24,000 nt of DNA from Acidothermaceae bacterium. Its GTDB lineage: Bacteria; Actinomycetota; Actinomycetes; Acidothermales; Acidothermaceae. This document shows, piece by piece, positions 1-23,573 of this stretch. The stretch covers positions 1 through 24,000 of the forward strand of contig JBOGEK010000082.1 of assembly GCA_050743645.1 (NCBI GenBank). The letters run 5' to 3'. The position numbers and the translations under genes were made by a program. The notes below the pieces were generated by a model, which was given only the letters and a program-made list of their open reading frames with translations, was not told the origin of the DNA and did not search any database. Positions within the stretch are counted from its first letter, which is position 1; every line of letters begins with the position of its first letter.

Positions 1-2
1 GT

Positions 3-1085
3 TCCGATGCGTTCTGCTCGGCACACATCGGCGACATGGGCAGCCTCGACACCTTGCGCGCGTTCGAGCGAGCGGTCGAACAGTTGACGACGTTGCACCA
101 GGTGCGCCCGACCATTATTGCGGCCGACGCGCATCCGTCGTATCTGACGCGATCGTGGGCCGAGCGCCATTCCGGCGGCCCCGACGAGCCGGGGTTACAG
201 CTTGTTCAACATCACCACGCACACGTGGTGGCGTTGCTTGCCGAGCACGACCGGCTCGGCGAGCCGGTCATCGGCATCGCCTTCGACGGCACTGGCTACG
301 GCGCCGACGCCACGATCTGGGGTGGCGAGATTTTGCTGCTGGGTAGGGATTCGTCGACGTATGAACGTGTCGGCCATCTCGACACGGTTGCGCTACCTGG
401 CGGCGATGCGGCCGTGAAAAACCCCTGCCGGACCGCGCTTTCTTACCTCACGTCGGCCGGCCTGGCATGGGACGACGACCTGCCGGCGGTCAACGCAACT
501 AGCGCCGACGAGCGAGCGGCGATGCTTGCGCAGCTCCCCACCGCCGTCCGATGTTCGAGCATGGGGCGGTTGTTCGATGCGGTCGCGTCGCTGCTCGACG
601 TCCGACATCGAGTGGGATACGAGGCGCAGGCGGCCATCGAACTTGAAGTGCTCGCCGAGCAAGGACGCCGCGATTCGCCGGCGACAGAACTGTCCTTTGA
701 CGTCAGCGAGAATCACGTCCTCGACTACCGACGTCTCGTTCGCGGGATTGTGGTTGCGATGCGTGCCGGCGTGGCTGCCCCGGCGCTTGCGTACGCATTT
801 CACGAGGCAGTCGCGGTTGCCGCCACGCGATGTGCGCGATCACTCGCAGCGCAGACAGGCGTGCGCACCGTTGGGCTCACGGGTGGCGTATTCCAGAACG
901 TGTTGCTGTTGCGGCTGATGCGCGAACGTTTGGAGTCTGCCGATCTCGACGTCCTCGTTCACCGGCGGGTGCCTCCGAACGACGGTGGGCTCGCGCTGGG
1001 GCAGGCGGTAGTTGCGGCATTGCGCGGATCGCGCGAGGTGGGCGAGCGCGAAGCGCAGGCGGTCGGTGGAGAGGAGTCGTCATGA
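3..1085 (+). CDS. hypF: [NiFe]-hydrogenase maturation carbamoyltransferase HypF, C-terminal part (5' end outside window)
   Basis: The frame is open back to nt 3 (SDAFCSAHIGDMGSLDT...), so listed ORF 36..1085 is only the tail of a longer gene. Motifs AADAHPSY, VQHHHAH, GIAFDGTGYG..IWGGE and PPNDGGLALGQ fit the Kae1/YrdC-like C-terminal half of HypF. It lies in one operon with hypE/hypC/hypD. Confidence 0.9.
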   Translation, partial: SDAFCSAHIGDMGSLDTLRAFERAVEQLTTLHQVRPTIIAADAHPSYLTRSWAERHSGGPDEPGLQLVQHHHAHVVALLAEHDRLGEPVIGIAFDGTGYGADATIWGGEILLLGRDSSTYERVGHLDTVALPGGDAAVKNPCRTALSYLTSAGLAWDDDLPAVNATSADERAAMLAQLPTAVRCSSMGRLFDAVASLLDVRHRVGYEAQAAIELEVLAEQGRRDSPATELSFDVSENHVLDYRRLVRGIVVAMRAGVAAPALAYAFHEAVAVAATRCARSLAAQTGVRTVGLTGGVFQNVLLLRLMRERLESADLDVLVHRRVPPNDGGLALGQAVVAALRGSREVGEREAQAVGGEESS

Positions 1086-1900
1086 GCACAGTGCTGGACG
1101 CCGGAGGCGCGTCGTCGCAGGTAGATCTCAACGCACCGCCAAACTCACAGGCTGGAAGTTCGCCCGGGATTCCACCCGACATGCTCGATCGCGGGCTCGC
1201 GGACGATCTCGCGGCCGCGTCGCTAGCACTGGCGCGACGCTTCCACGCGGGCGCAACGATGTGGTGTGTGGCGCCGCAATGGGAGCCGCACGCGCACCAC
1301 ATGGCGGTGGAGTTCGTGCACCCGGTGATCGTCGGAAAGCGCGCGCTGCCCGCGCTCGCGTTGACCGACCACGACTTACTTGCGCAGGCGCGCAGCTCTG
1401 TACGTGCCGGCGACATCGTGATTGCCGTTGCGGCGGCGAACGATCCTGCCGTGAACGCCGTCATGCGCCGGACGCCCGCCTGGGGCGCAATGAGTGTGTG
1501 GATCGGTTCGGGGTTGCGCCCGCACGACGGTGCAGCCGACCACGTGTTATGGATCGCCGATACGAATCCCTTGGCGCCGGCCACCGGCAGGTTCGTCATC
1601 ATGTACCACTTGCTGTGGGAACTCACCCATGTCTGCTTCGAACATCCGGGGCTGCTGGCACCGTCGTCGGCCAGCGACACGACGGAGTGTCGCGACGAGG
1701 TGTGCGTGACGTGCAGCGACGAAGGCCGGCCGGCCGAAGTGATCGCGCCACCGGTTGGTGCGTTCGGCGATGCGTTGGTGCGCACCGCGAAAGGCGAGGA
1801 GCGGATCGACGTCAGCGTCGTCGCGCCGGTCGAGGTCGGCGACTTGGTTCTCGTGCATGCCGGCTCGGCTTTGACGAAAGTGGCGGAGGCGACGTCATGA
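1082..1900 (+). CDS. hyp-operon accessory protein: degenerate SIS (GmhA-like) domain fused to a C-terminal HypC/HupF-like domain
   Basis: ATG 1082 overlaps the hypF stop (ATGA). The longer listed start at 830 lies inside hypF and is rejected. Residues ~40-190 align by eye with the SIS protein encoded next (HHMAVEFVHPVIVGKRALPALAL vs DAATFAALFARPITGRALPAVNL), but the GNGGS loop is replaced by APQWEP. Residues ~203-268 (CRDEVCVTCSDEGRPAEVI...VEVGDLVLVHAGSALTKV) resemble HypC (C...PG.V ... GDWVLVHVGFA). Confidence 0.75.
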   Translation: MSTVLDAGGASSQVDLNAPPNSQAGSSPGIPPDMLDRGLADDLAAASLALARRFHAGATMWCVAPQWEPHAHHMAVEFVHPVIVGKRALPALALTDHDLLAQARSSVRAGDIVIAVAAANDPAVNAVMRRTPAWGAMSVWIGSGLRPHDGAADHVLWIADTNPLAPATGRFVIMYHLLWELTHVCFEHPGLLAPSSASDTTECRDEVCVTCSDEGRPAEVIAPPVGAFGDALVRTAKGEERIDVSVVAPVEVGDLVLVHAGSALTKVAEATS

Positions 1901-2589
1901 CACAGACCGAGAGCACCAACTTCCTCTATCCGTTCATCGATTCTGAAGAACGTGACTCGTCGTCGCTACTCACCGATCTCGCAGCCTCTGCTACCGCGAA
2001 AGTGCACGAGAGCTCGGCCATGCAGCAGGCGACGCTGGCTGAATTCGGTGAGCGCATCGAAGAAGCCGCGGAGCAGATGGCGGAGCGGTTCACCGATCGC
2101 GGGCGAATGTACGCGTTCGGCAACGGCGGGAGCTCGACCGACGCCGCCACGTTCGCCGCACTATTCGCCCGGCCGATCACAGGCCGTGCGCTTCCCGCGG
2201 TGAACCTGGCGGCCGACATGTCGGTCATTACTGCGCTGGGTAACGACGTGGGCTTCGAGCTGGTGTTCTCCCGCCAGATAATTGCTCACTCGAGCGGCCA
2301 CGACGTTGCTGTGGCGTTCTCGACGAGCGGCAACTCCGCCGATCTGATGGCTGCGTTGCGTGAGGCAAAGCATCGTGGCCTGCTGACGATCGGCCTTGCC
2401 GGCTACACCGGCGGCGAGATGGCCGAATCAGATGCCGTCGACTTCTGTTTCGTCGTCCGGTCTCAAAGTATTCACCGTATTCAAGAAAGCCAGGCGCTTC
2501 TCGGTTACCAGCTGTGGTCGGCCGTGCAACGAAAGCTCGCCTCCCGGGCTGAGGGCACAGCCGGACACAGGGCGGAGGCGAAGGCATGA
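1897..2589 (+). CDS. SIS-domain protein, GmhA/phosphoheptose-isomerase-like, hydrogenase-cluster associated
   Basis: ATG 1897 overlaps the upstream stop (ATGA). The upstream part of listed ORF 1012..2589 is an Arg-rich out-of-frame artefact. Motifs YAFGNGGSSTDAATFA, ALPAVNL, ITALGNDVGFELVFSRQ, AFSTSGNS, LTIGLAGYTGG and SIHRIQESQ match the GmhA-type SIS fold. Confidence 0.85.
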   Translation: MTQTESTNFLYPFIDSEERDSSSLLTDLAASATAKVHESSAMQQATLAEFGERIEEAAEQMAERFTDRGRMYAFGNGGSSTDAATFAALFARPITGRALPAVNLAADMSVITALGNDVGFELVFSRQIIAHSSGHDVAVAFSTSGNSADLMAALREAKHRGLLTIGLAGYTGGEMAESDAVDFCFVVRSQSIHRIQESQALLGYQLWSAVQRKLASRAEGTAGHRAEAKA

Positions 2590-3701
2590 CCACCGCAGCC
2601 GAACACCCGGTTGCTGAACAGCCGGTCGATAGCCGTGAAGACCGCGTGCTCGAACGAATCTCGGCTTTTCGCAAGCGCCGTCCGCGGTTGATCGATGACC
2701 TCGTGACCCTGTCGCACGGCGCGGGCGGCAAGTCGTCGGCGGCACTCGTAGACTCCGTTTTCCTTGAGGCGTTCAGGAATCCTGAACTAGAGCAGCTCGG
2801 TGACGGCGCTGTTCTCACGTTGCCGTCGGGGGAGCGGCTGGTGCTGAGCACCGACTCATTCGTCGTTTCGCCACGGCGGTTCCCGGGCGGTTCGATCGGC
2901 CACCTTGCGGTGCACGGAACCGTCAACGATCTCGCCGTCAGTGGTGCGCGGCCGCAGTGGTTGTCGGCGGCCTTCGTCATCGAAGAGGGCGTGGCGATTG
3001 CTGAGCTTCGCGAGATCGTGGCCGACATGGCCGATGCCGCCCGCGCGGCCGGCGTTGCGCTGGTCACCGGCGACACGAAGGTGGTGCCGAAAGGCGCGGC
3101 CGACGGGCTTTACATCACGACGACGGGGGTTGGCGTCATCCCGACGGGTCGTCAGCTGTCGGCATCGCTGGTGCAACCCGGCGACCGGTTGGTGCTCTCA
3201 GGGACAATCGGCGACCACGGAATGTCGGTGATGATGGCGCGCGGCGACCTCGATATCGAAGCGGCGATCGAGTCCGACACCGCGCCGGTCAACGAACTCG
3301 TCGAAGCGTTGCTGGCTGCTGCGCCGCAGACGCGTTGGATGCGCGACCCGACGAGAGGCGGGCTCGGCACGATCTGCAACGAACTGGCGCAGGCCTGCGG
3401 TTACGCGGTGATCCTCGACGAGCTCAGCCTGCCGGTCGCACCGATGGTGCAGGGCGCGTGCGACATCCTCGGTATCGACCCGCTGTATGTCGCCAACGAG
3501 GGCAAATTCCTTGCTGTCGTGCCCGAATCGCAAGCCGACGCGGCTGTCGCGGCGCTGCGTGCACGCCCATCCGGCGCGGCGGCCACCGTGGTCGGCGAAG
3601 TCGTCGCCGAGCCCGAAGGGATTGTTGCGCTGCGCACTGGATTCGGCGGTAGTCGGATCGTCGACATGCTGGTCGGCGACCCGTTGCCGCGCATCTGCTG
3701 A
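2586..3701 (+). CDS. hypE: hydrogenase maturation protein HypE (carbamoyl dehydratase, AIR-synthase-like)
   Basis: ATG 2586 overlaps the upstream stop (ATGA). Has LSHGAGGK, PurM/AIR-synthase-like repeats, and the diagnostic C-terminal ...DPLPRIC ending in the thiocyanate-carrying Cys. Confidence 0.95.
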   Translation: MTTAAEHPVAEQPVDSREDRVLERISAFRKRRPRLIDDLVTLSHGAGGKSSAALVDSVFLEAFRNPELEQLGDGAVLTLPSGERLVLSTDSFVVSPRRFPGGSIGHLAVHGTVNDLAVSGARPQWLSAAFVIEEGVAIAELREIVADMADAARAAGVALVTGDTKVVPKGAADGLYITTTGVGVIPTGRQLSASLVQPGDRLVLSGTIGDHGMSVMMARGDLDIEAAIESDTAPVNELVEALLAAAPQTRWMRDPTRGGLGTICNELAQACGYAVILDELSLPVAPMVQGACDILGIDPLYVANEGKFLAVVPESQADAAVAALRARPSGAAATVVGEVVAEPEGIVALRTGFGGSRIVDMLVGDPLPRIC

Positions 3702-3730: not shown

Positions 3731-4003
3731 ATGTGCCTAGGAATTCCGGGCCGTGTGGTCGAGATGGTCGATCCCGCCCATCATCTGGCGAAGGTCGACG
3801 TGAACGGCATTCGCCGCACGATCAGCGTGCGACTGCTCGCCGAGGAGAACGTCGCGCTCGACGACTGGGTGCTCGTGCACGTGGGGTTCGCCATGGCGAA
3901 GATCGACCAGCACGAGGCCGACATGACCCTCGAGGCGGTCAAAAACATGGGCAAGACCTATGACGACGAACTCGATGCGTTCGACAAGTCTTCAATCATT
4001 TAG
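3731..4003 (+). CDS. hypC: hydrogenase maturation chaperone HypC/HupF
   Basis: Canonical N-terminus MCLGIPGRVVEM and DDWVLVHVGFAMAKID. SD GGAAGGAA lies 5-12 nt upstream. Confidence 0.95.
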   Translation: MCLGIPGRVVEMVDPAHHLAKVDVNGIRRTISVRLLAEENVALDDWVLVHVGFAMAKIDQHEADMTLEAVKNMGKTYDDELDAFDKSSII

Positions 4004-4012
4004 GAGCCGGCA

Positions 4013-5182
4013 ATGAAGTTCGTCGACGAATTCCGCGATCCCGCGGCCGCCCGTGCCTTGGTCACATCGATCAACGAGTTGGCCGGCGCCGACGAGTTCA
4101 AGTTCATGGAGGTGTGCGGCGGCCACACCCACACGATCTATCGGCACGGCATCGAACACGTCCTGCCGCCCAACGTCGAACTCGTGCACGGGCCGGGTTG
4201 TCCGGTGTGCGTGATCCCGATGGGCCGAGTCGACGACGCGATGTGGTTGGCCGAGCAGCCGAACGTCATCTTGACCACGTTCGGCGACATGATGCGGGTG
4301 CCGGGCAGCAAGGGCAGCATGCTTGACGCCAAGGCGCGCGGCTGCGACATCCGGTTCGTGTACTCACCACTTGACGCGTTGAAGATCGCGGTCGACAACC
4401 CCCACAAGGAAGTCATCTACTTCGCTGTGGGTTTCGAGACGACCGCGCCGTCGACTGCCGTGACGCTGGTGCGCGCAAAGGATCTCGGGGTCACGAACTT
4501 CAAAGTGTTCTGTAACCACGTGACGATCGTGCCGCCGATCAAAGCGATTCTCGAATCACCTGACCTCCGGCTGTCAGGCTTTCTCGGGCCCGGTCACGTG
4601 TCGACCGTCGTCGGCAACCGGCCGTACCGCTTCATCCCCGATGTGTACGGCAAACCGGTCGTGGTCGCAGGTTTCGAACCGCTCGACATCTTGCAGTCGG
4701 TGCGCATGCTGCTCGCGCAGATTCGCGAGAACCGCTGCGAGGTCGAGAACCAGTACAGCCGCGTGGTGCGGCCCGAGGGCAACCCGCAGGCGCTCGCGCT
4801 GCTCGGTGAAGTCTTCGAGCTGCGTCCGCATTTCGAGTGGCGCGGGCTCGGTTTCATCAGCCAGAGCGCGCTCAAACTCAACGCCCACTATGCGGCGTTC
4901 GACGCCGAACTCGCGTACAACATGCCCGGCGTTCGAGTGGCCGACCCGAAGGCCTGTCAATGCGGTGAGGTGTTGAAGGGCGTGCTCAAGCCCTGGGAAT
5001 GCAAGGTTTTCGGCACGGCTTGCACACCTGAGACGCCGATCGGAACCTGCATGGTTTCACCCGAAGGGGCTTGTGCGGCGTACTACAACTTCGGGCGGTT
5101 GCATCGCGAGACCGCGCTCCTCGTCGGCAATTCCAGCCAGACGCGACCCGCGAGCGCAGCGAGCGAACTAGCAAGCACGTGA
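4013..5182 (+). CDS. hypD: hydrogenase maturation protein HypD
   Basis: MKFVDEFRD start, CGGHTH, GPGCPVCV, GFETTAP, and C-terminal CQCGEVLKG / CTPETPIGTCMVSPEGACAAYY cysteine motifs. AGGAG overlaps the hypC stop 6 nt upstream. Confidence 0.95.
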   Translation: MKFVDEFRDPAAARALVTSINELAGADEFKFMEVCGGHTHTIYRHGIEHVLPPNVELVHGPGCPVCVIPMGRVDDAMWLAEQPNVILTTFGDMMRVPGSKGSMLDAKARGCDIRFVYSPLDALKIAVDNPHKEVIYFAVGFETTAPSTAVTLVRAKDLGVTNFKVFCNHVTIVPPIKAILESPDLRLSGFLGPGHVSTVVGNRPYRFIPDVYGKPVVVAGFEPLDILQSVRMLLAQIRENRCEVENQYSRVVRPEGNPQALALLGEVFELRPHFEWRGLGFISQSALKLNAHYAAFDAELAYNMPGVRVADPKACQCGEVLKGVLKPWECKVFGTACTPETPIGTCMVSPEGACAAYYNFGRLHRETALLVGNSSQTRPASAASELAST

Positions 5183-5958
5183 ACTCGGGAGAGCGGCTCT
5201 TCGCCCGGTACGCATACGCACCCAACGACCTCGGATACTGCGGACCTGCCGAAACTGCTGAACTTTTCGAACTCGGTGCTACCAGTCACAGTGCTCGTAG
5301 CATCCGCCCGATAGCCGAACGGTTTTCTGGTGCCTGGCCGTATGCGCAGTTGCTCGCCGAGGTCGCCGGTATCGACGATCCGCTTGACGAACGCGTGATG
5401 CGTGCGTACTGGACGGGCAGCCCGCTGCTCGACGCGATCGACCGTGAGGCATTCGGCATCAAGCTGATCGATCGCTTCGGCTCCGAAGCGGGTCATTACT
5501 GGGCTCATCTGACCCCCGACTTGCTGCCTGAAGCGATGCCTACCCATGGATTCCATGTGTTCGGCGTCTATCCCTGGTCGCGACTGTTGTGTGGCGACAC
5601 GGCGGTCGCGGCGCTGCAGGTGCTCGACAACTGCCGGATCCGCTGGGGTCAGGTAGAACGCGTCGACGGTGCGCACGTGGTCGTGCGGTCGGAGCGCCTG
5701 ACATGGGACGGCCGGGCACTCGCACTCGGGCACCCAGCGACAGAACGTGTTCGACTGAGTATGGGTGGCGTCGGATTCGTCGACGCTCCCGTCGCAGGCG
5801 AATGGCTCGCACTGCACTGGGACTGGGTGTGCGAACGCCTGACCACCCAAGACCTCGATTGCCTACAACGCTGGACGACGTGGCAACTTAGCGCGACGAA
5901 CGCCCGGCTGGCTTCGACCGAGCCGCGTCGAGCTTCGCCGCCGTCGACGAACCATTAG
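5179..5958 (+). CDS. conserved hypothetical protein of the hyp operon (N-terminal RYAYAPNDLGYCGP domain; C-terminal HypC-like segment)
   Basis: GTG 5179 overlaps the hypD stop (GTGA). The listed TTG 5071 start lies inside hypD. High GC3 throughout. I tentatively recall the N-terminal motif from an uncharacterised actinobacterial DUF (possibly DUF6390), unverified. The C-terminal part NCRIRWGQVERVDG...GEWLALHWDWVCERL parallels HypC. Confidence 0.7.
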   Translation: MNSGERLFARYAYAPNDLGYCGPAETAELFELGATSHSARSIRPIAERFSGAWPYAQLLAEVAGIDDPLDERVMRAYWTGSPLLDAIDREAFGIKLIDRFGSEAGHYWAHLTPDLLPEAMPTHGFHVFGVYPWSRLLCGDTAVAALQVLDNCRIRWGQVERVDGAHVVVRSERLTWDGRALALGHPATERVRLSMGGVGFVDAPVAGEWLALHWDWVCERLTTQDLDCLQRWTTWQLSATNARLASTEPRRASPPSTNH

Positions 5959-8036
5959 CCAGCCGGCATGTCGAGGCTGAACCACACGACCTTGCCCCGT
6001 TCTTCGGTCTCGATGCCCCACCGTGACGACAGCAACTCAACGAGTTGGAGTCCGCGGCCCGACGTGTCGTCGGTCCCCGGATCGCTGTAATGGGGCAACC
6101 GGTGTGATTCGTCGTAGACGCCGACTGTTAGAACCGTCGGCGTGCACGAAAGCCGCACGTCGAGAAACGCATCCGACTGTCGTGACGCGTTGGAGACGAG
6201 CTCGGTCACGAGTAACGCAGCCGTTTCTGTGACGTCGGAGGGTACTGACCAGGCAGCCAAGATGTCGGTAAGAAACCATCGGGCGATAGGCGCGGACGAC
6301 GGCAAAGCAGGCAAGCGGCGCACAATGTTCGGGCGGTCATCGACATTCCCGCCAGGCATCCGTAGCAACACCAGGGCGACATCGTCTCGTCGAGGTTGAC
6401 CATCGGTCAGGTCGGCGAGCAACGCATCGGCCAGCACGTCGACGTCGTCGTCAAGACGTTCACTTAGCAGCGCGGCAACCCGATCTAGGCCGGTGTCCGG
6501 CGTCCGGCTGGCTGATTCGACGAGGCCGTCACTGCAGATCGCAAGCAGTGCGTGTGGCGGCAGATGCACAGTTTCTTCTTGCCACTCCGCGAGTTCTTCG
6601 ACTCCGAGCGGGAGTCCGCCACGACCGTCGAGCAGCCGTGGCGCGCGGCCCGGGGCGACGACGACGGTCGGCAAATGACCCGCTCGAACCCACGTCACCA
6701 GACGCGAATCGGGATGCACCTGCAAGTAGCTCATCGTCACCAGGCGATCGCCTGCAGCTTGCGCGACGAAGGAGTTCGCCGCTGCCGCCACTCGCGCGGG
6801 TGGCAGTCCCGATCTCGCATGCGAATGCACGATGGCGCGAACCTGTCCCATCAAGGCAGCCGCTTCGAGGTCATGGCCTTCGACGTCGCCGACGACAACC
6901 GCCATCGCGTTCGATCCCACGAGCAAGGTGTCGTACCAGTCGCCCCCTACTTCGGTGCCTGCATCGGCGGCGCGATATCGCACCGCGAGATCGACGCCCA
7001 ACATCGAACGCTGTGGCTCCGCCGGCAACAAGCTGCGCTGCAGGGTGAGTGCTGCCCGGCGTTGCTCCGAATAGTCGCCGGCATGGGTCAGCGCGATCGC
7101 AGCCCGTTCGGCGAACTGCTCGAGTACCGCCCGATCGCGCGCATCGAACGCTTCTTCACCATGCGGCCGGACGACGGAAAGCGCCCCGAGTCGGCGGGGT
7201 TCGCGACCTATCGGCACCGTGATGAAGTACCTCGGCTGCAGCCGTCTGATGAGTTCGGAGTGTCGCGGTGAAGTCGCCGATGCGATCAGCGCATCGGTGT
7301 CGACGACGCCAATGCGAGTCGTTCCGTTGCGCGCCGCTTGCACTGCATACGATTCGGCCTGCCGGTCGGGCCGACCCGAAACCCGCGGCTGCGTTTTCAT
7401 CTCGTCAATGAGCTCCTGCTTGGCGGGGTCATAATGCGTGGCACCGATACGCAAAAGCGATCCGTCGGGTTGCCAGAGGTCGAGCAGCCCCCAACCAGAA
7501 AACAGCTGGGCGGCGAGCCGGGTGACCGCCGCGGTCACCTGGTCGACGTCGAGCGATCGGGACAGCTCGACACTCACTCGGTCGAGCGCCCGCGCGGCCC
7601 GTAGCCGCTCGTCTTCCGCCGCGGGGTCAGTGACGCTGATCGCTTGGCTGAATACGCCGACAAGGTCGCCATCGAGGTTTCGCAACGGGCTGCATACGGC
7701 GTCGACCAACGTGTGGGGCCGCACATCGTCGGGTTGTCCGACCGGTGCTTGGGTGAACCGCAATTCTTCGCCGCTTGCCCATACCTGCTCGAGCGCCAGC
7801 ACGAAGCGGGGTAGATCAGCGAAGACGTCCCGTGCTGGCCGCCCGACCGCGCGGACACCGTGCAAAGTGCGCGATGCCACGTTCTGATATGCGAGCAGCT
7901 GCTCAGCTCCGGCGAAGATCACGGTGCGCGCTGGGGCGGACTCCAGGGCCGCGAGCATCGGTCGCCATTGCTCGCCGAGCAGCATCGCAGCCTCATCGAG
8001 CGGTTGCGTGTCTTTGCGTGCTGCCGGCACGGTCAC
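5955..8036 (-). CDS. multidomain signalling protein: PAS-like + GAF + PP2C/SpoIIE phosphatase + HATPase_c (RsbW-like anti-sigma kinase) domain
   Basis: PP2C block: LQRSLLP...VRYRAADAGTEVGGDWYD...VVVGDVEGHDLEAAALMG...AGH...DGLVE...DDVALVLL. C-terminal part: LLVTELVSNASRQS...GRGLQLVELLSSRWG is RsbW-like. The preceding ~330 aa look like PAS plus GAF. Start is GTG 8036 (GTG 8030 is also possible). Confidence 0.85.
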   Translation of the reverse strand: MTVPAARKDTQPLDEAAMLLGEQWRPMLAALESAPARTVIFAGAEQLLAYQNVASRTLHGVRAVGRPARDVFADLPRFVLALEQVWASGEELRFTQAPVGQPDDVRPHTLVDAVCSPLRNLDGDLVGVFSQAISVTDPAAEDERLRAARALDRVSVELSRSLDVDQVTAAVTRLAAQLFSGWGLLDLWQPDGSLLRIGATHYDPAKQELIDEMKTQPRVSGRPDRQAESYAVQAARNGTTRIGVVDTDALIASATSPRHSELIRRLQPRYFITVPIGREPRRLGALSVVRPHGEEAFDARDRAVLEQFAERAAIALTHAGDYSEQRRAALTLQRSLLPAEPQRSMLGVDLAVRYRAADAGTEVGGDWYDTLLVGSNAMAVVVGDVEGHDLEAAALMGQVRAIVHSHARSGLPPARVAAAANSFVAQAAGDRLVTMSYLQVHPDSRLVTWVRAGHLPTVVVAPGRAPRLLDGRGGLPLGVEELAEWQEETVHLPPHALLAICSDGLVESASRTPDTGLDRVAALLSERLDDDVDVLADALLADLTDGQPRRDDVALVLLRMPGGNVDDRPNIVRRLPALPSSAPIARWFLTDILAAWSVPSDVTETAALLVTELVSNASRQSDAFLDVRLSCTPTVLTVGVYDESHRLPHYSDPGTDDTSGRGLQLVELLSSRWGIETEERGKVVWFSLDMPAG

Positions 8037-8905: not shown

Positions 8906-8939
8906 CTGACGGAGGACCGCTCTGCGAGCCGGCCGTCAG
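8906..8939 (-). terminator. GC-rich stem-loop overlapping the stop codon of the GGDEF-EAL gene (possible U-tract-less terminator or attenuator)
   Basis: Outer arms CTGACGG (8906-8912) / CCGTCAG (8933-8939). Inner arms CCGCTC (8917-8922) / GAG(C)CGG (8926-8932) with a 3-nt loop. No U tract follows on the - strand, so function is uncertain. Confidence 0.3.
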
Positions 8940-11341
8940 GCTTGGACGGCGACGTCAGGCGCCGCGGCCGTGCGCTCTCGGGCGCCTTCGGCCCTGCCAC
9001 CGACGTCCCCAATGAAATCGCGCGCCGCCAGCACCGGCAATGGCCGCGAGATCAAGTAGCCCTGCGCGCTCTGGCAATGCAGTTGCGTGAGAACATCGCG
9101 CTGCACGCTGCTCTCGACACCTTCAGCGACAGTTGCCATGTCGAGATCGCGCGCGAGGCGCAGGATCATCTGGACGAACGCTGCCCCTTCGGTACCCGGT
9201 TCGGCGAGCGGGTCGACGAATGACTTGTCGATTTTCAGGACGTCGACGGGGAATTCATGGAGATACCCGAGTGAGGAGTAACCCGTTCCGAAGTCGTCGA
9301 TGGCGATCCTGATTCCCAAGTTTCTCAAGGCCGCCAGCGTTTGCGCCGTTCGACCACGATCGACCATCAAAGCGCTCTCGGTGATTTCCAGAACCAGTCG
9401 GCGCGGGTCGAACCCGCTGACGGCGAGTACCTCTTTGACATCCGAAATCAGCGAATGGCTGTCGAGTTGGCGCGCTGAAAGGTTCACCGAGAGCGTCAGG
9501 GCGGTACCGTAGATCGTCGGCCAGGCGGTCGCCTCACTGCAGGCGGCTTCGAGCACCCAACGGCCGAGTTGCACGATGAATCCGGTGTCTTCAGCGAGTG
9601 GGATGAAACGGTACGGGCCGATGTGGCCCAACGTCGGATGTTGCCAGCGCACCAGCGCTTCGAAGCCTTCGAGGTCGCCATCGGCGAGCGAGATCTGTGG
9701 CTGGTACTCGAGAAAGAACTCGCCGCGTTCGATCGCGCCATGAAAAGCGTTTGTGATGGCGACGCGGTCTTCGAGTCGCGAACGCATCCGCGGCTCGAAG
9801 ATCGAGAAGCGGTCTTTGCCCGAAGCTTTTGCTTCGTACATTGCGGTATCGGCTTCGCTCAGCAACTGTTCGGCGCCGACCGCCTCGTCGCTGAATGCCA
9901 CGCCGACGCTCACCGACAGGTTGATCTGCCGGTCGCCGATCGTGATCGGTTCGCGAAGGACGTCGACAATGCGCGCGGCCAATGCGACCGCCACGTCGGC
10001 GCTGTCGACGTTGTCAAGCAGGACAGCGAATTCGTCACCGCCGAGCCGAGCTACGGTGTCGCCGCGACGCACGATCGTCTGCAACCGGTGCGCGGCCGAC
10101 ACCAGCACGTCGTCACCGGTCTGGTGGCCGAGGCTGTCGTTGATCGCCTTGAAACCGTCGAGATCGCAGAAGAACACGCCGATCGTCGTACCGAGTCTTG
10201 AGGTCGATGCGAGCGCATGCTCCACACGGTCATAAAGCAGCGCACGGTTAGGCAGGCCGGTGAGATTGTCGTGAAAGGCCTGATGTCGTAGCTCGTCTTC
10301 GAGCGATCGTTGGGCGTCGAGCGCGAGCTGCAACGATTCGCCACGCTGGGCCAGCAGATCCGCCTGATCGCGAGCGCGCCCATAGAGCCAGGTGAAACGC
10401 AACACCACCAGCGAGAACAGCACAATCGAGGTGCTTGCGAGAACAGGCACATCGGTGCCGAAGTCGAAGATCGCGCCCAACAAGAGGATCGCGGGCGACA
10501 CAAACCCGGCCACTGCTACGAGAGGCACCCAACGCCGTACCGGCTGCCGGTTACCGCTGATGCGCGCGAGCGGATCCGCCATTGTCGGATGGAGGGCGGC
10601 AACCGCTATCAATACGTAGTTGACGAGGAAGCCTGCGTCGACTGGGTTTCCGGCCTCGTAGGTTCCCTTCAACTCCAGTACGTCGTAGACGAAGTCGGCG
10701 ATCAGCATCGCAACGATGGCCAGAATTACGATCTTGTCGGCACTTCGACGGGCGAGCCCCGACAGTAAGGCGCCCGCGACGATCAGCAGAACGCCGAGGT
10801 CCATGATCGGGTACGCCATCGTGACGAGCTTGCCGAACAGGCTGATCGTGTTGTCGTGAGCGTACGAGCTCATCAACGATTGCCACGACAGGGCGAGCGC
10901 GCCGACACAGACGATCGCAGCGTCGGCCCAAATCTCGCGCGAGTGTCGGCTGAACTTCGCGCGGCCAATCCGAAACACGCCGGCGAACAGGAACGGATAG
11001 CCAAGTAAGTAGAGCGCGTCGGCGACCGACGGTACCGGCACGTCCGAATGCCACACCAGGTCGTAGCAGTCGAAGATCCCGTCGCCCAGTACAAAGCAGG
11101 CATTGGCGGCGCCGAGCAGATACCACCCGGCACGCGATCCCGGTCGGTGCAGCCGGACGCCGAAGCACACGCCGACGGTCGACCCGACGCCGATCGCGCT
11201 GTACATGTAGTCCTTGGCGGCGATGCTGGGCAGCGTGAAATAGACGCCTACCGCAACCAAGCCGACCGCCAGTGCGATCTTCCAGAGACCGCGCTTCACC
11301 GGGGCTGCCTGCAGTTCGCCGGCTGCGGTCCGGGCAAGCAA
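8936..11341 (-). CDS. membrane-bound bifunctional-type c-di-GMP protein: ~10-TM N-terminal domain + GGDEF + EAL
   Basis: GGDEF domain: FHDNLTGLPNR, FCDLDGFKAINDSLGH, RRGD-x5-GGDEF (intact I-site and A-site). EAL domain: EALVRW, SVNLS, EITES, DDFGTGYSS, KIDKSF, AEGVES, QGYL, all intact. About ten hydrophobic segments in the first ~320 aa. The start is uncertain: TTG 11341 is the longest, and GTG 11299 gives MKRGLWKIAL... Confidence 0.9.
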   Translation of the reverse strand: MLARTAAGELQAAPVKRGLWKIALAVGLVAVGVYFTLPSIAAKDYMYSAIGVGSTVGVCFGVRLHRPGSRAGWYLLGAANACFVLGDGIFDCYDLVWHSDVPVPSVADALYLLGYPFLFAGVFRIGRAKFSRHSREIWADAAIVCVGALALSWQSLMSSYAHDNTISLFGKLVTMAYPIMDLGVLLIVAGALLSGLARRSADKIVILAIVAMLIADFVYDVLELKGTYEAGNPVDAGFLVNYVLIAVAALHPTMADPLARISGNRQPVRRWVPLVAVAGFVSPAILLLGAIFDFGTDVPVLASTSIVLFSLVVLRFTWLYGRARDQADLLAQRGESLQLALDAQRSLEDELRHQAFHDNLTGLPNRALLYDRVEHALASTSRLGTTIGVFFCDLDGFKAINDSLGHQTGDDVLVSAAHRLQTIVRRGDTVARLGGDEFAVLLDNVDSADVAVALAARIVDVLREPITIGDRQINLSVSVGVAFSDEAVGAEQLLSEADTAMYEAKASGKDRFSIFEPRMRSRLEDRVAITNAFHGAIERGEFFLEYQPQISLADGDLEGFEALVRWQHPTLGHIGPYRFIPLAEDTGFIVQLGRWVLEAACSEATAWPTIYGTALTLSVNLSARQLDSHSLISDVKEVLAVSGFDPRRLVLEITESALMVDRGRTAQTLAALRNLGIRIAIDDFGTGYSSLGYLHEFPVDVLKIDKSFVDPLAEPGTEGAAFVQMILRLARDLDMATVAEGVESSVQRDVLTQLHCQSAQGYLISRPLPVLAARDFIGDVGGRAEGARERTAAAPDVAVQA

Positions 11342-21656: not shown

Positions 21657-23573
21657 ATGATCCCGTCCGTCGTCTGGTTGCCGGGGGGACTCGTGCGTCG
21701 CTTGTCAGTGATCGTGTGTGCGGTTCTTGTTGCCGGTGGCATGTCAGCCACGGTGGGTCAAGGCTCCGCGCTCGCGACTGGTTCCGCCGCCAACTGGGCC
21801 GCGGTACAGCCGGTAAAAGTGCCGCCCGCTTCAGCAGCCGCGGGCGCCGTGACCGCGTTCGACCCGGCAACCGGGCAGTTGTTGCTGACGACCGTGTCGA
21901 ACGGCACCTGGAGCTGGGACGGTCTCAGCTGGAACCAGCTAGCGCTCGGAAGCGGTTCGCACGCTCGCAGCAATGGGGCCATGGCGTTTGACGGGACGAC
22001 GAAGCAGATGGTGATGCTCGTGCCACAGTTGCCGCCGGCCTCCGCCCAAACCTGGACCTGGAATGGCTTGGTGTGGAGTCAGCAACTCTCCCCGCACAGC
22101 CCGATCAGCGCAGACTGCATTGGCTACGACGACGCCACGAAGCAACTCGTTGCGCTCGGGCTCGACGACACAACAAGCGCATCGACGTCGACATTTCTTT
22201 GGCAGGGCGGCGACTGGTCGACATTGCCGCCCTCGCCGACCGCGCCGTTGACGACCGAGCCGTTGGAATGCTCGATGGCCTACGACCCGGCGCTCGACGA
22301 GTTGGTTGCAGCCGTGCATTCGCCAATCGACGTCAGTGCGCAGCTACTGAGCTGGGACGGCCAAAGATGGAATACGTTGCTGTCAAGCGTTCCGTGGCTT
22401 GCGGGCGGTCCCGTTGACATCGCTTACGACGATGCGGCCGGCCAGCTCCTCGCGCTCGCCGCGGTAAATACGACGGGCGCCACCGGACCCAACCAGTACA
22501 TCTGGCCGACTATTCAGCCGCAGGCTTGGGCAATGACCGGCGAGTCATGGTCACAGCTCACCCTCACCGCGGCGGATGGCGAGCCAGCTGGTCTTTCTTA
22601 CGACGCTGCGACAGACCAGGCGATCGGTATCGGCCCGAGCGGATCAGCGTTCAACACATTGCTGTACGAGGGCAGTGCGTCGAGCAGCGTTTTGCCGCTG
22701 CGGCTTGCGGGTGCGAATCGAGATGCGACCGCAGTCGCCATATCGCAGAACGCATTTCCCGACGCCGGCTCTGCAGGCGCCGTAGTGCTGGCGCGATCCG
22801 ACGGGTTCGCCGATGCGCTGGCTGGTGGGCCGCTGGCTGCCGCGAAACACGGTCCGTTGCTACTTACGTCGTCCGACTCGCTCGACGGTATGACGAAAGC
22901 CGAGATCCAACGGGTGCTGCCCGTTGGCGGAACGGTCTACGTGCTAGGCAGTACGACCGCCCTGTCTGCCAAGGTTTCCGCGGCAATGACAGCAATCGGT
23001 GACGTGCCCGTACGGCTTGCGGGACCCGACAGGTTCGGCACCGCGATCGCCGTGGCCAACGCGCTCGGCAATCCGTCGACGGTATTCGAGGTCAACGGCC
23101 TCGACTTCCCTGATGCGCTGTCAGCGGTGCCGGCTGCGGTGAGCACCGGTGGCGTCGTCCTGCTGACGCATGGTCCCGCGCAGGCAAAGGCCACGGCGAC
23201 GTACCTGTCTGCGCATCCAGGTTCCCATTACGCCGTAGGCGGATTGGCTGCCGCAGCCGATCCGTCGGCGATCGCACTCGCGGGAGCGAATCGCTACGCG
23301 ACGTCGGACCAGGTAGCGTCCGCCTTTTTCCCCAAAAGTAACGGTGTTACGGCTGCCTCCGGCCTCGGTTTCGCCGATGCGTTAGCTGCTGGCCCGGTCG
23401 CCGGTGCGGCACTGCAACCGTTGCTACTCGTGCCGACATCTGGTCCGTTGCCCGAGCCGATCATCGCCTATCTCGGTACGCGTGACGCCACTGTCACATC
23501 TATCACCGTGGCAGGCGGTACCGCGTCAGTAACTGACGACGTCGAGCAGCAAATCGCCGCCGGCCTCAACTGA
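21657..23573 (+). CDS. secreted protein: Kelch-like beta-propeller repeats (aa ~60-340) + three CWB2 (cell wall binding repeat 2) modules (aa ~349-636)
   Basis: Signal peptide (V)RRLSVIVCAVLVAGGMSATVGQGSALA. Five W-x-W-(D/N/Q)-G-x-x-W-x-x-L repeats alternate with (A/G/S)(F/Y)D...Q(L/M)(L/V) strands. Three repeats begin RLAGANRDATAV, RLAGPDRFGTAI and ALAGANRYATSD, each followed by G(F)(A/P)DAL(A/S)(A/G)GP, as in CWB2. An alternative start is GTG 21693. Confidence 0.85.
   Translation: MIPSVVWLPGGLVRRLSVIVCAVLVAGGMSATVGQGSALATGSAANWAAVQPVKVPPASAAAGAVTAFDPATGQLLLTTVSNGTWSWDGLSWNQLALGSGSHARSNGAMAFDGTTKQMVMLVPQLPPASAQTWTWNGLVWSQQLSPHSPISADCIGYDDATKQLVALGLDDTTSASTSTFLWQGGDWSTLPPSPTAPLTTEPLECSMAYDPALDELVAAVHSPIDVSAQLLSWDGQRWNTLLSSVPWLAGGPVDIAYDDAAGQLLALAAVNTTGATGPNQYIWPTIQPQAWAMTGESWSQLTLTAADGEPAGLSYDAATDQAIGIGPSGSAFNTLLYEGSASSSVLPLRLAGANRDATAVAISQNAFPDAGSAGAVVLARSDGFADALAGGPLAAAKHGPLLLTSSDSLDGMTKAEIQRVLPVGGTVYVLGSTTALSAKVSAAMTAIGDVPVRLAGPDRFGTAIAVANALGNPSTVFEVNGLDFPDALSAVPAAVSTGGVVLLTHGPAQAKATATYLSAHPGSHYAVGGLAAAADPSAIALAGANRYATSDQVASAFFPKSNGVTAASGLGFADALAAGPVAGAALQPLLLVPTSGPLPEPIIAYLGTRDATVTSITVAGGTASVTDDVEQQIAAGLN

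Follow-up and report, generated by a model that had tools for sequence, protein, structure and literature searches.

GmhA, the zinc-dependent sedoheptulose-7-phosphate isomerase of the heptose pathway (SIS_2, PF13580; structures 2X3Y and 5LU5 from Burkholderia pseudomallei and 2I2W from Escherichia coli), is a homotetramer in which every chain carries all of the active-site residues, and its active site is put together across subunits. Activity of the B. pseudomallei enzyme requires the conserved zinc ligands H64, E68, Q175 and H183, and each site is located between three chains (PMC5705639). These residues correspond to His61, Glu65, Gln172 and His180 of E. coli GmhA, as we checked on the E. 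coli sequence, whose numbering is used for GmhA below. Published descriptions place the Glu (helix alpha2) and the His (helix alpha6) on one subunit and the Gln (alpha6') on another (PMC4697000, section 11), and the loop residues together with the Gln on one monomer and the Glu on another (PMC7705670). Here we describe two adjacent genes, designated X and GmhAL, in a 24,000-nucleotide stretch of DNA (the window) from an Acidothermaceae bacterium (contig JBOGEK010000082.1 of assembly GCA_050743645.1), which lie in an operon of [NiFe]-hydrogenase maturation (hyp) genes and appear to divide the residues of one GmhA-type active site between them.

Group 1h and 2a [NiFe]-hydrogenases allow soil bacteria to live on atmospheric hydrogen and are wanted as oxygen-insensitive catalysts, and their production in foreign hosts requires that every maturation factor be known. 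Genes of the gmhA type are indicated in the group 1h loci of Acidobacteria and of Streptomyces (PMC5900883) and are frequent in group 1h/2a hydrogenase operons according to a thesis cited in PMC11879354; in the group 1h (Hhy) hyp region of Mycobacterium smegmatis the gene annotated gmhA, MSMEG_2706, lies between hypE and hypF (PMC5445863). In a proteomic study of A. ferrooxidans gmhA was counted among the maturation proteins (PMC7735108), a 'SIS domain' appears as a conserved neighbour cluster in PMC12727194, and a 2025 review of cofactor assembly makes no mention of gmhA (PMC12134894). The gene before gmhA is given in PMC11879354 as a 'hypothetical protein gene', which we take to be X because it lies between hypC and gmhA, as in the loci surveyed here. 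An earlier note on this DNA, made from the sequence alone, had mentioned that GmhA-like genes occur without an assigned function in high-affinity hydrogenase loci, and two of these papers bear this out (PMC11879354, PMC5900883). Among open-access papers and bioRxiv preprints we found no functional study of gmhA or SIS genes in this setting, of a cryptic SIS domain in X or of a split site, an absence which is not proof that none exists. SIS genes are known, then, as neighbours in hyp operons, and X has so far been annotated as hypothetical or simply as HypC. What is new here, on the strength of sequence comparison and structure prediction, is the GmhA fold hidden in X and the apparent division of one active site between two genes or domains.

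Complementary GmhA-type residues in X and GmhAL

The second of the two genes, GmhAL (1897..2589; coordinates are those of the window, and features lie on its forward strand unless stated otherwise), encodes a GmhA-like SIS protein of 230 residues that matches the Pfam family SIS_2 (6e-15) and solved GmhA structures (7e-28 over residues 52-213). The earlier note had seen that this protein keeps the GNGGS and STSGNS signatures, and both are there: the phosphate and sugar loop GNGGS at residues 75-79 (2119..2133) and the phosphate loop STSGNS at residues 142-147 (2320..2337). Conservation was counted over 79 species-level sequences of GmhAL and 81 of X. The two loops and the GND segment, which holds the equivalent of Asp94 (2239..2247), are each present in 79/79 species. 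Residue by residue, N52, G53, G54, S55, D58, D94, S119, T120, S121, S124 and Q172 are 100% conserved, the last of these being Q196 of the window protein (79/79; the segment from Q196 to Y204 spans 2482..2508). The picture is different at the zinc site. The His61 position is Thr in 75 of the 79 species (T85 in the window, in the segment T85-F-A-A-L89, 2149..2163), the Glu65 position is never acidic, and the His180 position is occupied by Tyr in 69, Phe in 5, His in 4 and Ala in 1, Y204 being the residue found here. Judged by its sequence, GmhAL is without three of the four zinc-binding or catalytic residues of GmhA and has retained the substrate-binding set and the Gln. It also falls far below the cut-offs of all the NCBIfam equivalog models for GmhA, for example (NF010546, 122.5 against 276 bits; TIGR00441, 107.3 against 209.45 bits).

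The first gene, X (1082..1900), encodes 272 residues in which a cryptic GmhA-like SIS domain is followed by a HypC-like module. The fold of the N-terminal domain (residues 38-190, 1193..1651) is recognised only by profile and structure methods, because the simpler searches are too weak: Pfam SIS models gave no match on X at E<=0.1, BLASTP between X and GmhAL gave E=0.07, which is too weak alone, and phmmer against PDB sequences returned nothing significant. A profile of 147 N-domain sequences was aligned by hhalign with the GmhAL family over 148 columns at 96% probability (E 2.8e-9), and the same domain matched the hydrogenase-linked SIS protein of Cupriavidus necator at 98.7% (E 1.8e-16; BLASTP 7e-12). 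An AlphaFold2 model of X built from 81 sequences (predicted local distance difference test, pLDDT, 87.7; predicted template modelling score, pTM, 0.83) has the strand and helix order of a SIS domain, and in a Foldseek search of the PDB its top 34 matches were GmhA or DiaA, those to GmhA ranking first, with E down to 9e-10 and root-mean-square deviations of 2.4-2.6 Å. These profile alignments and the predicted structure firmly support the homology of the X N-domain to the SIS/GmhA fold and the status of X and GmhAL as paralogues. The earlier note had assigned a GmhA-like SIS fold to both proteins, which holds for GmhAL by its Pfam and PDB matches and for X by hhalign and AlphaFold2/Foldseek; the hmmscan search that it had proposed found SIS_2 on GmhAL and HupF_HypC on X, but the Pfam SIS match on X did not materialise.

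The X domain is without the phosphate loops and without the GND (alpha3) segment of GmhA. In the alignments APQWEP (residues 64-69, 1271..1288) stands in place of GNGGS, just as the earlier note had read, the STSGNS loop has become AAAND, and the GND segment is deleted. Three of the four residues of the metal site are present. The helix alpha2 motif H70-A-H-H73-M-A-V-E77-F-V-H80-P (1289..1324) supplies H73 and E77, the equivalents of His61 and Glu65, and the last-helix motif Y175-H176-LLW-E180-LT-H183-V-C185-F-E187-H188 (1604..1645) supplies H176, the equivalent of His180. All three are found in 81/81 species-level sequences, as are the further residues H70, H80, E180, H183, C185, E187 and H188, and the N-domain is among the most conserved parts of X across these species. 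At the position of Gln172 there is a Thr in 77/81 (T168 in the window, 1583-1585). The register of His176 was set by gapless alignment of the deep-branching homologues P0244 and P0235 (VQEVHEIAYHVLWEL) with E. coli GmhA (IQEIHIKVIHILIQL), together with the C. necator SIS protein. Two other candidates for the His180 equivalent, His183 from a comparison by eye and Tyr175 from hhalign against GmhAL, were dropped, as the gapless alignments give His176.

Placed side by side, the two sequences are complementary: X retains the metal and catalytic set (His73, Glu77, His176), GmhAL retains the loops and Gln196, and by this count neither is complete alone. Because the retained sets match what two neighbouring GmhA chains contribute, we interpret X and GmhAL as partners in an obligate heteromer, each interface of which would form a single composite site. 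A heteromer, which the earlier note had also suggested, is likely from these complementary residues, and most likely the two proteins would function only as a hetero-oligomer. The same note's view that the first protein is probably non-catalytic has to be reversed, since it is X that has the invariant His73, Glu77 and His176, and GmhAL that has Thr85, a non-acidic residue and Tyr204 in their places. The pair thus resembles GmhA in its fold and, as predicted, in a site that lies across subunits, and differs from it in the extra invariant His, Glu and Cys around that site, in the loss of alpha3/GND from X and in its place in a hyp operon rather than a heptose pathway. It would be a clean example of an active site partitioned between paralogues after duplication.

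The C-terminal part of X is HypC-like. A linker (1652..1711) that carries C203 and C208, and in which the model is of low confidence around residues 197-210 (pLDDT <50 at residues 200-202), leads into a HypC/HupF-like beta-barrel at residues 211-270 (1712..1891), which is recognised by Pfam, by hhalign and by AlphaFold2 strands at 216-266. With 33.5 bits over residues 217-270, the Pfam model HupF_HypC (PF01455) passes its gathering score (28.5), and the NCBIfam model TIGR00074 gives 23.6 against a cut-off of 48, below threshold. Aligned by hhalign with 143 canonical HypC sequences (96.9%, E 1.3e-10), the module places T210-C211 on Met1-Cys2, in agreement with the earlier note's proposal that the C-terminus is HypC-like and that the internal Cys211 is the counterpart of HypC Cys2. 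In the same alignment the conserved His of the motif VLVHxG in HypC has its counterpart in H259. All of the species sequences (81/81) have C208, C211, D213, G215, R216, E219 and H259, and 80/81 have E214. Of the C203-x4-C208-x2-C211 cluster described in the earlier note, all three Cys occur in the window protein, but C203 is optional; because it is found only in 60/81, the conserved feature is the CxxC formed by C208-V-T-C211 (1703..1714) and not a three-Cys cluster. X therefore has in common with the HypC/HupF/HoxL chaperones (PF01455) a HypC-type barrel with an essential Cys and a conserved His. Unlike them, it has this Cys not as residue 2 but internally, after a second invariant Cys, and a 200-residue enzyme-like domain precedes its barrel, which itself scores under the TIGR00074 cut-off.

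Conservation, linked hydrogenases and other architectures

The protein collection contains more than 7,900 homologues of X, of about 240-265 residues and in 935 clusters at 50% identity, and relatives of X are encoded by at least 587 stretches of GTDB species-representative genomes. Gene order was read from the best 80 loci of these at least 587 stretches, nearly all of them from Actinomycetota (Mycobacterium, Rhodococcus, Nocardioides, Pseudonocardia, Dactylosporangium and others). In 80/80 species loci hypF lies upstream and is followed by X-GmhAL-hypE-hypC-hypD. The earlier note had raised the possibility that the fusion in X is an assembly frameshift. A frameshift or assembly artefact is ruled out by the thousands of homologues of the same length and architecture (more than 7,900) and by the synteny in 80/80 loci. 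One X locus, at 64% identity, was met outside Actinomycetota, in a metagenome-assembled genome labelled Candidatus Sericytochromatia (L026), and reflects either horizontal transfer or a binning error.

We then asked which hydrogenases accompany the pair, a survey the earlier note had called for, by looking for large-subunit genes within 10 kilobases (kb) of it in 82 loci. A group 1h large subunit is present in 47 of these (L1 motif TSRICGICGDNH; best PDB match R. eutropha HofG, 5AA5, 1086 bits) and a group 2a large subunit in 10 (best PDB match M. smegmatis Huc, 7UTD, 1094 bits). An SH-type (HoxH-like) large subunit occurs in one, on plasmid pHG201 of Rhodococcus opacus DSM 43205 (L020), where it adjoins X-GmhAL-hypE-hypC-hypD. 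No large subunit was found within 10 kb in 24/82 loci, many of which are on short contigs, and no hydrogenase structural genes lie within the window. This linkage points to the pair as a putative accessory maturation factor for the O2-insensitive, high-affinity group 1h/2a [NiFe]-hydrogenases of aerobic Actinomycetota.

Relatives with other architectures bear directly on the division of residues. Five proteobacterial loci without X (Cupriavidus, Afipia, Methylocystis, Bradyrhizobium and Novosphingobium) have a single complete SIS protein, encoded between hypC and hypD, or between hypF and hypD in Methylocystis, in whose one chain GNGGS, GND, STSGN(S/A) and the His, Glu, Gln and His are all present. 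The clade motifs HxAVEFxHP and YHILWDLVH are common to these single proteins and X. The closest sequence relative of both halves is the protein from C. necator H16 (WP_011153996, in the group 1h AH locus of pHG1), which is 44% identical to GmhAL (1e-53) and matches X at 7e-12. It has the motifs HxAVEFxHP and YHxLW(D/E)LxH, in common with X, and an N-terminal LYPF, in common with GmhAL, and its gene stands between hypC and hypD; unlike the pair it holds the loops and all four metal and catalytic residues in one chain and has neither a HypC fusion nor a partner gene.

In a further arrangement the two domains are joined. The protein WP_014511321 of Thermus thermophilus pTHTHE1601 (392 residues) consists of an X-like domain followed by a GmhAL-like domain, and its 120 closest relatives, with source names Thermus, Gemmatimonadota and Acidobacteriota, are 390-404 residues long. 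In 120/120 of these the first domain has no phosphate loops and keeps H65, E69, H72, Q153, H161, E165 and H168, and the second keeps GNGGS, ND, STSGGS and Q373. The tandem operons run hypC-hypD-hypE-[SIS-SIS]-glutaredoxin-hypA-hypB, and in one locus (L093) the tandem gene comes directly after that of a hydrogenase large subunit, with genes for NifU, DUF5947 and DUF6084, an accessory set also found in the C. necator group 1h locus. The tandem proteins show the same division of labour as the pair, domain for domain and within a hyp operon, and they differ from it in being a single chain, in having no HypC-like module and in being followed by a glutaredoxin gene. A SIS-HypC-SIS fusion of 425 residues (P0235; 3 cluster members on 4 contigs) has its gene between hypF and hypD; hydrogenase subunits and the NifU/DUF5947/DUF6084 accessory set are encoded in the same locus. 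The existence of such fused forms is classical evidence that the two halves act together. From these comparisons the window pair represents, by sequence, a two-SIS maturation module in its split form; the module is widespread and comes in three architectures: single, one-chain double and split. This defines a widespread and conserved module, with the split form on at least 587 stretches and a large tandem family besides.

Some smaller features of these families deserve mention. A glutaredoxin-like gene always follows the tandem SIS gene (L089, 4629-4889; L091, 9175-9435; L093, 9181-9417), the Thermus gene bearing the annotation Uxx-star (seleno)protein; beside the actinobacterial pairs, where X has the invariant CxxC, no glutaredoxin gene was noted, though no search was aimed at one. 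The second domain of the tandem family (P0393-P0512) has an invariant Cys266 after Asp265. The motif FLYPF, at residues 9-13 of GmhAL (1921..1935), is invariant or nearly so in hydrogenase-linked SIS proteins, namely GmhAL, the single proteobacterial form and the inter-domain linker of the tandem proteins; neither E. coli GmhA nor X has it. FLYPF may be a docking peptide.

A putative composite site in hydrogenase maturation and its alternatives

The explanation that we favour, with moderate confidence, is that X and GmhAL are diverged halves of a hydrogenase-specific GmhA-type enzyme, a hetero-oligomer with a composite site that acts as an accessory maturation factor. X and GmhAL would assemble as GmhA does, and the X:GmhAL interface would hold one complete site, with a metal held by X beside a phosphorylated sugar-like ligand on GmhAL, while the reciprocal site would be dead. 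The HypC-type module of X, with C211 and H259, probably binds iron or docks on HypD or on the large-subunit precursor, as HypC does, and through this module the composite site would be anchored to the HypCD scaffold, the place of Fe(CN)2CO assembly. That the metal residues and the substrate residues are both strictly conserved argues for chemistry over mere scaffolding, and the extra His, Glu and Cys residues of X suggest a metal or a reaction other than the Zn-dependent isomerisation of GmhA. HypX, the CO-forming enzyme, forms a 1:1:1 complex with HypC and HypD (PMC6802093), and as it works bound to them, an enzyme fused to a HypC adaptor would be a sensible design. The least certain part is the output of the composite site; we would guess at a step that air makes necessary, in ligand supply (for example of the carbonyl) or in iron handling. 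The pair suggests that the catalytic metal centre of air-tolerant hydrogenases is built with a further, uncharacterised step, and the GmhA fold of X provides concrete point mutants, ligands and complexes to test.

Several observations count against this explanation. Not every hydrogenase of these groups can depend on the module, since gmhA is missing from some group 1h/2a loci, for example most of those in Frankia (PMC11879354). Which chain contributes which residue was taken from the literature on GmhA, and one of the papers concerned is a modelling study. The AlphaFold2 model of the natural fusion (pTM 0.76, pLDDT 82) fits a packed arrangement of the two domains and is no proof of it, and its Foldseek matches cover the GmhAL part only. 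Finally, in the second domain of the tandem proteins the positions of His61, Glu65 and His180 are taken by the invariant Asp261, Asp265 and His381, so that one live and one dead site may be too simple a scheme outside Actinomycetota, and in the tandem proteins the second site too may be live. These residues suggest that the tandem second domain has a second, different metal site which the actinobacterial GmhAL has lost.

Of the rival explanations the one that survives best, though we hold it to be rather unlikely, is a non-enzymatic scaffold of the DiaA kind, in which the oligomer gathers HypC-like modules for HypD, HypE or the large subunit and ligand binding by GmhAL is vestigial or regulatory, such as the sensing of a sugar phosphate to gate maturation. 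DiaA, the DnaA initiator-associating protein and one of the structural matches, is a GmhA-fold tetramer without isomerase activity that binds a partner protein (PMC4697000); like the putative X:GmhAL oligomer, it has the GmhA fold and serves a purpose outside heptose synthesis. The loss of the phosphate loops from X would fit such a role, as would the HypC-like module, which is a protein-docking unit. However, a scaffold has no need for the invariant His73, Glu77 and His176 of X, nor for six further His, Glu and Cys residues there (81/81), nor for the eleven invariant substrate-contacting residues of GmhAL (79/79), and the same split of residues is kept in the tandem family. DiaA, which binds DnaA, has lost the catalytic Glu and further active-site residues by replacement (PMC4697000, PMC7705670), whereas the pair keeps catalytic and substrate residues, distributed over two chains.

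A metal chaperone is also unlikely in our judgement. Here the X site would bind Fe(II) or Ni(II) and pass it via the CxxC linker to the HypC-like module and HypD, so that cofactor iron is supplied or protected in air, and GmhAL would be only a structural partner. The GmhA site is a genuine Zn site (PMC5705639), the iron source for HypCD is unresolved (PMC12134894), and the invariant H70, H80, E180, H183, C185, E187 and H188 of X, together with a CxxC beside the HypC-type Cys, would suit the handling of a metal. What this explanation leaves unaccounted for are the invariant sugar and phosphate residues and the Gln of GmhAL, as well as the full GmhA-type substrate pocket of the single-chain relatives.

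A more specific form of the composite-site explanation, drawn by analogy and quite improbable as it stands, would make the site a second, HypX-independent route to the carbonyl, or to another small ligand or precursor, of NiFe(CN)2CO in air-living bacteria. A metal-bound ketose or aldose phosphate would be opened to an enediol or aldehyde as in GmhA and then cleaved or decarbonylated, and the C1 unit would pass to iron held by Cys211 and His259 of the HypC-like module on HypD. Chemical analogies for such steps are the formation of CO from an enediol by Ni-acireductone dioxygenase and the decarbonylation of a formyl group by HypX. HypX, the aerobic CO-ligand synthase, resembles the proposed module as an accessory enzyme of O2-tolerant hydrogenase maturation that acts while bound to HypC-HypD. 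The analogy is functional only: HypX is made of formyltransferase and crotonase-like domains without sequence or fold relation to X and GmhAL, and no formyltransferase or enoyl-CoA-hydratase-like Pfam domains were found in X or GmhAL.

It is, finally, very improbable that GmhAL is an ordinary sedoheptulose-7-phosphate isomerase for envelope heptose with an incidental position among hyp genes, and X a HypC paralogue with a decayed N-domain, as the database names ('D-sedoheptulose-7-phosphate isomerase', 'HypC/HybG/HupF family chaperone') and the 7e-28 match of GmhAL to solved GmhA might suggest, for three of the four residues on which GmhA activity depends (PMC5705639) are missing from GmhAL, whose score of 122 bits lies well under the equivalog cut-off (276), 80/80 species share the gene order and the translational coupling, the X N-domain is highly conserved and not decayed, and M. 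tuberculosis has a separate, studied GmhA with catalytic Glu66 and Gln173 (PMC7705670).

Operon layout and neighbouring genes

On the forward strand of the window the genes follow in the order hypF-X-GmhAL-hypE-hypC-hypD, with neighbours joined by a 4-base overlap or a short gap. The window begins within hypF, whose 3' part occupies 1..1085 (the gene runs off the window start; Pfam HypF_C_2 8e-76, HypF_C 2e-16). The ATGA overlaps that the earlier note had placed between hypF and X (1082), X and GmhAL (1897) and GmhAL and hypE (2586) are exact: the hypF stop TGA at 1083-1085 overlaps the X ATG at 1082, the X stop at 1898-1900 the GmhAL ATG at 1897, and, as read from the sequence, the GmhAL stop at 2587-2589 the hypE ATG at 2586. 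A purine-rich Shine-Dalgarno-like site lies 5-7 nucleotides 5' of each of these three starts, namely GAGAGGAG at 1069..1076, also read from the sequence, 5 nucleotides ahead of X, and GGAGG at 1885..1889 and at 2574..2578, each 7 nucleotides ahead, of GmhAL and of hypE respectively. Further downstream are hypE (2586..3701; Pfam AIRS and AIRS_C), a canonical hypC that begins MCLGIPG (3731..4003; PF01455, 86.7 bits), hypD (4013..5182; Pfam HypD 2.6e-154) and a DUF6390 gene (5179..5958), the GTG start of which is inferred from its GTGA overlap with the hypD stop.

The start of X requires comment, as NCBI places it at Met34 in the identical protein of the metagenome-assembled genome (239 residues). 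The ATG at 1082 is better supported, because it has a Shine-Dalgarno site and an overlap with the hypF stop and because residues 29-33 (G29, I30) are conserved in close relatives. From these sequence features it is probably the true start, and the deposited one too short.

The DUF6390 gene is a fixed member of these actinobacterial hyp operons (loci L003-L082), in which it lies either directly after hypD, as in the window, or between hypF and X. The hyp operon of the window has signalling genes as neighbours, which encode GAF-SpoIIE(PP2C)-HATPase_c_2 and GGDEF-EAL proteins at 5955-8036 and 8936-11341, both on the reverse strand, and in a related genome (L001, 6510-7517) an anti-sigma-type HATPase_c_2 protein and a STAS protein are encoded just upstream of hypF. 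These flanking genes may provide partner-switching control of hyp expression. Unrelated to the SIS pair, a 638-residue protein with three CWB2 cell-wall-binding repeats is encoded at 21657-23573 on the forward strand.

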